64,000 nt of DNA from Escherichia coli (lineage in GTDB: Bacteria; Pseudomonadota; Gammaproteobacteria; Enterobacterales; Enterobacteriaceae): NCBI RefSeq assembly GCF_009931435.1, contig NZ_CP043414.1; one strand, written 5' to 3'. The translations under genes were made by a program, and so were the position numbers. Shown here in pieces: positions 29,353-29,928 of the stretch (positions within the stretch are counted from its first letter, which is position 1; each line of letters opens with the position of its first letter). Below the pieces are notes generated by a model, which did not search any database, had not been told where the DNA came from, and was given only the letters and a program-made list of their open reading frames with translations.

Positions 29353-29928
29353 ATGGAATACTTTGATATGCGTAAAATGTCGGTGAATCTGTGGCGAAAT
29401 GCTGCCGGTGAAACGCGCGAAATTTGCACTTTCCCACCGGCAAAACGTGATTTTTACTGGCGTGCCAGCATTGCATCCATCGCGGCGAATGGGGAGTTTT
29501 CTTTGTTTCCAGGTATGGAAAGGATAGTGACGTTGCTGGAAGGCGGCGAGATGTTCCTTGAAAGCGCAGACCGCTTTAACCATACCTTAAAACCGTTACA
29601 GCCTTTTGCCTTTGCGGCGGACCAGGTGGTTAAAGCGAAACTGACGGCAGGGCAGATGTCGCTGGATTTCAACATCATGACACGCCTGGATGTCTGTAAG
29701 GCGAAAGTCAGAATTGCCGAACGTACGTTTACTACCTTTGGCTCACGCGGCGGGGTAGTGTTTGTCATTAACGGGGCGTGGCAATTGGGCGATAAACTGC
29801 TCACTACCGACCAGGGCGCGTGCTGATTCGATGGCAGGCACACCCTGCGGCTTTTACAACCGCAAGGTAAACTGTTGTTCAGTGAAATCAACTGGCTCGC
29901 TGGTCATTCGCCGGATCAAGTTCAGTAA
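29353..29928 (+). pseudogene. ves: ves (HutD-family protein) with in-frame premature TGA at 29824-29826; 157 codons before the stop
   Basis: Frame from [14 protein letters not shown]... hits TGA after ...TDQGAC, then continues for 33 further sense codons ([33 protein letters not shown]) to TAA at 29926-29928, giving the 191-codon K-12 length. Confidence 0.7.

Follow-up and report, generated by a model that had tools for sequence, protein, structure and literature searches.

The ves locus and its interrupted reading frame

The window analysed here, a stretch of 64,000 nucleotides of Escherichia coli DNA (contig NZ_CP043414.1), carries the ves gene with spy on one side and the convergent gene cho on the other, which is the position of ves in E. 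coli. The same gene order, astE-spy-ves><cho-nadE-osmE-chb, is found in annotated E. coli genomes, K-12 MG1655 among them. When the plus-strand frame at 29353-29928 was re-read and translated, it was found to consist of 157 sense codons (starting with MEYF and ending with DQGAC), a TGA, 33 further sense codons and a TAA, exactly as an earlier reading of the sequence alone (the sequence-only reading) had claimed. The sum of 157 + 1 + 33 gives 191 codons, which equals the length of K-12 ves (b1742, 576 nt) as that reading had also stated, and codon arithmetic agrees with its predicted loss of 34 C-terminal residues. Table 1 gives the features of the locus.

Table 1. Features of the ves-cho region of the window (positions in the window)
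Feature	Position	Strand	Remarks
Truncated ves ORF	29353..29826	+	157 sense codons and premature TGA; orthologous to ves/b1742
Premature TGA, codon 158 (Trp158 to stop)	29824..29826	+	Variant base 29826
ves 3' remnant	29827..29928	+	33 open in-frame codons and original TAA; nucleotide-identical to L020/L021
cho (excinuclease Cho)	29888..30775	-	Intact, 295 aa, convergent with ves; no stops or gaps
Overlap of cho with full-length ves frame	29888-29928	ves + / cho -	41 nt

The TGA had been proposed to replace a TGG (Trp) codon through a single change. Alignment of window ves with the alleles of K-12 MG1655, 042, AR_0077 and RMDEC465 bears this out: position 29826 is A in the window and G in the references, 4/4 of which have TGG at codon 158, and the relatives described below have G as well. 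There are no indels between window ves and the four references. K-12 ves differs from window ves at 13 of 576 nt; both alleles share the start and the terminal TAA. Window ves is colinear with intact orthologues and owes its in-frame stop to one substitution, with no second lesion in the gene; its complete domain is not contained in one uninterrupted ORF, the stop being codon 158. Since the frame is a full-length ves orthologue in a conserved gene context, interrupted at one base, the TGA is not to be put down to chance in a non-coding frame. Only readthrough of the UGA would now allow the 3' remnant to be translated.

Origin of the allele and reliability of the sequence

A 55-mer with the variant base at its middle was searched by megablast against complete E. 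coli genomes, with each 28-nt seed having to include 29826. None of the 5,426 genomes had A at this position, and the control 55-mer with G matched 5,398; reference alleles that also end at codon 158, which might have made the stop an ordinary feature of the gene, are thus absent from this set. The best match of window ves to complete E. coli genomes was no higher than 99.3%, because the lineage of the window is poorly represented among them. Closer relatives were found among draft assemblies by exact-protein look-ups. Assembly GCA_902709095.2 (loci L020, L022 and L024) is 99.977-100% identical to the window, with L020 at 99.977% over 21.3 kb, and a comparable closeness is seen for GCA_016664965.1 (L025), GCA_030511265.1 (L021) and a scaffold from a metagenome (L023). 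Both L020 and L021 have an intact ves with the same nucleotides as window ves save G at 29826, as expected if A is the derived state. The repaired 191-aa Ves product was found in 534 public contigs, and the truncated product, for which 4 alternative start codons were tried, was absent from about 15 billion proteins. Taken together, these comparisons indicate that the stop allele of the window is derived, private to the strain and very recent. The frame downstream of the TGA is still open and undiverged, which fits a very young lesion.

As to the ancestry of the window, strain 2020CK-00188 matches positions 1-20000 and 40000-64000 at 99.4-99.7% identity, and the central 20000-40000 (ast-spy-ves-cho-nadE-chb-katE) is 97-98% identical at most to any complete E. 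coli genome, with the ves allele nearest to those of strains 042, IAI39 and CE10. This pattern suggests that the central 20 kb may be an old recombination tract common to a small clade including GCA_902709095.2. At about 2006-2181 the window lacks the ydjE-ydjL cluster (8 genes, about 9 kb) that K-12-like strains and 2020CK-00188 possess, so that only about 175 nt lie between yeaC (1737-2006) and pncA (2181-2819); judged from the match spans, the cluster seems to be missing from several related complete genomes too. The window also carries an intact espL1 gene for the type III secretion effector EspL1 (49084-50979, minus strand) between thrS and yniD, and the exact EspL1 product is common to close relatives.

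That the allele is unique to the window among close relatives and complete genomes is also what a sequencing, base-calling or consensus error would produce, in which case the strain would truly have TGG and an intact ves. We translated the 72 annotated genes of strain 2020CK-00188 and searched them against the window. About 64 of these genes are present, 62 of them uninterrupted; ves is the sole gene with an internal stop, and chbR is split by a frameshift. Comparison with the nearest relatives over a common 53,730 nt leaves three changes that are private to the window: astE Q188L (27929), ves W158* (29826) and a -1 change in chbR (about 34907). Two of the three are truncating, a high fraction for random mutation in numbers too small to test. 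An error is favoured by the lesion in chbR, a second private truncating change whose type, -1 in an A5 run, is typical of sequencing error, and by the clustering of all three changes within 7 kb (27929-34907) of 53.7 kb, for which the estimated probability is about 0.05 if changes fall uniformly. On the other hand, substitution errors are rare in a finished consensus, and 29826 lies outside any homopolymer, GATC or CCWGG (context gcgtgctgAttcgat). Among homopolymer runs of at least 5, only 1 of 243 differs from the relatives. The three private changes are no more than the 4 found in GCA_902709095.2 alone over the same span, the relatives' own private changes being five over the span compared. 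In addition, the same mutation in an independent public data set (L005, see below) shows that the change is biologically attainable. On this evidence we regard an error at 29826 as unlikely; the assembly looks clean, and the private change looks normal for the clade.

Two more specific sources of a false or damaged gene were considered and set aside. A Dam/Dcm base-calling artefact or a Dcm deamination hot spot does not apply to a site without GATC and CCWGG, and a Shigella-like or error-ridden origin of the window does not agree with its lack of IS elements and of widespread decay, only ves and chbR being damaged.

The chbR gene (34842-35683, plus strand) has a 1-nt deletion in an A5 run at about 34907-34911 (reference GGCAAAAAC, window GGCAAAAC), which shifts the frame after about codon 23 and brings a stop about 50 codons in. 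It is intact in all references and in the nearest relatives, and lies 5 kb from ves. The product, ChbR, has the annotation of a dual regulator for the chb operon, and its loss should leave chitobiose use uninducible; this homopolymer indel could itself be a sequencing error. In astE (27367-28335, plus strand), A>T at 27929 replaces Gln188 of AstE with Leu, and the codon is CAG (Gln) in 8/8 references and relatives. All three window-private changes are protein-altering, as are the five coding SNPs private to the relatives, which are all nonsynonymous. When window positions 5543-60979 were compared with L020-L025, all seven coding substitutions were protein-altering (among them ydjA I67T, topB I326T, astD P174S, astE Q188L, cho A152T and ves W158*) and none was synonymous. 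A pattern of this kind, with all coding substitutions nonsynonymous, fits very recent, unpurged polymorphism.

A comparison across strains for recurrence of the allele, as the sequence-only reading had advised, yielded one independent W158* besides that of the window. In the Logan assembly of SRR15216328 (locus L005), positions 3472-3474 hold a genuine TGG>TGA at ves codon 158, with an intact cho downstream; two similar places besides L005 are not shown. The nonsense change and the codon are identical to those of the window, but the ves background differs: the L005 allele is K-12-like and has 9 other nucleotide differences from window ves, including M104 instead of L104. Because of this different background, the sequences indicate that W158* of L005 arose independently of the window allele and not by shared ancestry. 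One independent recurrence is unremarkable and in line with chance, given that a stop results from 62 of the 1,719 possible single-base changes in ves, with five Trp codons among the sites where this can happen, and given how very many assemblies were screened. Further truncated Ves products are on record, for example of 147 and 170 aa. A 157-aa Ves that has M104 and ends at the same residue as the window product is also on record, and most of its occurrences are contigs that simply end at this point. The apparent hot spot of contigs ending at ves codon 158 (L006-L012) was rejected as an ascertainment artefact, since an exact 157-aa query selects contigs that happen to end there; the real stop is found only in L005.

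Predicted consequences for the Ves protein

Pfam, Foldseek and structure modelling were run on Ves with codon 158 read as Trp, that is, on the full-length protein. The repaired Ves matches HutD (PF05962) with E = 7e-44 over residues 8-175, covering model positions 6-180 of 181. The stop sits inside this domain and removes residues 158-175 of the match together with the tail. A total of 4,312 Ves homologues were found among 1.84 billion representative proteins. Sixty full-length homologues of about 30-40% identity were aligned; 51 of the 60 have W at position 158, and positions 165, 174, 175, 177 and 179, all past the stop, are conserved as hydrophobic. Column 158 is followed by 25 or more residues in all 60 rows, which is partly so by construction, as the rows were picked for full length.

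An AlphaFold model of repaired Ves built from the homologue alignment had a pLDDT of 95.5 and a pTM of 0.91, with strands at 154-158, 164-167 and 173-181, the last two of them confident. The top Foldseek matches of this model were 5V00, 5FCC and 1YLL (E of about 1e-15 to 1e-16, TM 0.8-0.85), on which it superposes over 185-194 alignment columns, as would be expected of a bicupin fold. These structures are HutD of Pseudomonas fluorescens SBW25 (5FCC/5V00) and PA5104 (1YLL), and they cover almost the whole of Ves at 22-26% identity. HutD also matches Ves in sequence with E = 1e-15, and the C-terminal strands belong to the common fold. A passage of PMC8034625 that refers to Gerth et al. 2017 describes HutD proteins as bicupins. 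HutD limits hut expression, and Pseudomonas deleted for hutD has higher hut expression and reduced fitness on histidine (PMC8034625), while the function of HutD is still called unknown (PMC8034625). Unlike the HutD gene, which lies in a hut operon, ves lies outside any hut operon, and its window allele is truncated. The searchable literature on ves (ydjR) holds almost nothing beyond a match in an overexpression screen for H2O2 resistance (PMC8228696).

Compared with K-12 Ves (YdjR, b1742), which is encoded in the same astE-spy-ves><cho-nadE context by 191 codon positions with TGG at codon 158, the predicted window protein has 157 aa instead of 191. According to the model, its strand 154-158 would be short of the final residue, and strands 164-167 and 173-181, the last two beta-strands of the protein, would be missing altogether. 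The loss of two barrel strands and of the conserved Trp should block proper folding. Thus, judged from sequence and model, the truncated Ves is most likely inactive, or at best a leaky hypomorph.

Readthrough, recoding and the fate of the allele

Programmed recoding, with UGA158 as a selenocysteine or regulated readthrough site, has in its favour the identity of the codon and the presence of selD in the window (7489-8529), though selD is so placed in all E. coli. Against it, the ancestral codon is Trp, neither Cys nor Sec, and neither UGA nor Cys is conserved at position 158, where Trp is the residue in most of the aligned homologues; the lack of UGA158 in all of the complete genomes argues against a conserved recoding site. 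Folding of the 62 nt that follow the UGA was not superior to that of shuffled sequences (z = -1.31; 17 of 200 shuffles were as good), and ves has no match in Rfam at a threshold as loose as E<=1, so that neither the folding nor Rfam revealed a SECIS-like hairpin 3' of the UGA. On these grounds recoding was discarded, and we consider it exceedingly improbable.

A leaky or conditional allele is a second possibility. Here insertion by Trp-tRNATrp at UGA158 would sustain wild-type Ves at a level of a few per cent, higher at low temperature, and the allele would be a knock-down, possibly a selected one. UGA is the leakiest stop codon in E. coli, and in a K-12 reporter Trp-tRNATrp reads it through with a frequency of about 2% at 37 C, rising to about 4% at 25 C (PMC10570021). 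Such readthrough would restore the native Trp158, and the allele may therefore be severely hypomorphic and not a strict null. The perfectly intact frame downstream of the TGA and the independent W158-to-UGA change on the ves background of L005 also agree with a leaky allele. However, the base after the window TGA is U, and U following a stop is reportedly the most efficient termination context, as Poole, Brown and Tate are said to have found in 1995. The RF2 of K-12 is unusually weak; the reporter figures being from K-12, natural isolates should read through less. Moreover, readthrough is a generic property and no evidence of selection, two occurrences in hundreds of thousands of assemblies are at chance level given the 62 stop-creating changes, and the truncated Ves products on record have various other lengths. 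A knock-down allele in this sense is improbable. Its stronger form, a selected 'dimmer' that supplies a few per cent of Ves and more in the cold, with the recurrence reflecting selection for lower Ves dosage, we hold to be a shade more doubtful still; the same low credence applies to selection for ves/cho relief, meaning relief of convergent translation and transcription.

We propose instead that window ves probably represents a very recent G>A nonsense allele, whose 34-residue truncation most likely leaves a non-functional Ves and a nascent pseudogene. In this view, 29826 underwent a spontaneous transition from G to A (C>T if read on the opposite strand), by which the conserved Trp158 codon TGG became TGA; this would have happened very recently, in the window strain or its immediate ancestors. 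Translation would then stop early, this bicupin of the HutD family would lack the two final beta-strands of its second cupin barrel, and the truncated Ves would most likely be misfolded or degraded and non-functional. ves is a non-essential E. coli gene. Since Ves is non-essential and without established function, and no co-directional gene lies downstream, the mutation probably represents neutral or mildly deleterious drift.

In these respects window ves is no different from the ordinary strain-private pseudogenes of E. coli, which have one inactivating point lesion, intact orthologues in close relatives and an undecayed frame downstream. It is an ordinary young loss-of-function allele of the kind found in every E. 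coli genome; this kind of allele is already known, and no new mechanism, family or principle is involved. For annotation, window ves is to be recorded as a pseudogene with an internal stop and not as a 157-aa protein. In this strain ves function has probably been lost, or strongly knocked down, by natural mutation, and near-isogenic relatives keep the gene intact; the two together offer a possible natural contrast for probing Ves function.

With regard to the neighbouring genes, the lack of a co-directional gene downstream means that operon polarity is not an issue for the ves stop. The cho ORF overlaps the full-length ves frame only, and the claimed end of the ves/cho overlap in the truncated gene was upheld. 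An effect on cho coding was rejected, as 29826 lies 62 nt outside the untouched cho CDS and the exact window Cho product is a common allele (66 public contigs). No terminator-like site was found between 29550 and 29888 on either strand, and it is conceivable that the earlier release of ribosomes affects convergent transcription into cho. The cho-nadE intergenic region has an Rfam match to the ES036 (CssrF) sRNA (RF02751) at 30883-30925 on the minus strand (42.9 bits, gathering 37.6; E = 1.5e-6), adjoined by a sub-threshold naRNA4 match at 30929-30965 on the plus strand; this site is probably a REP-type element and not related to the ves stop.
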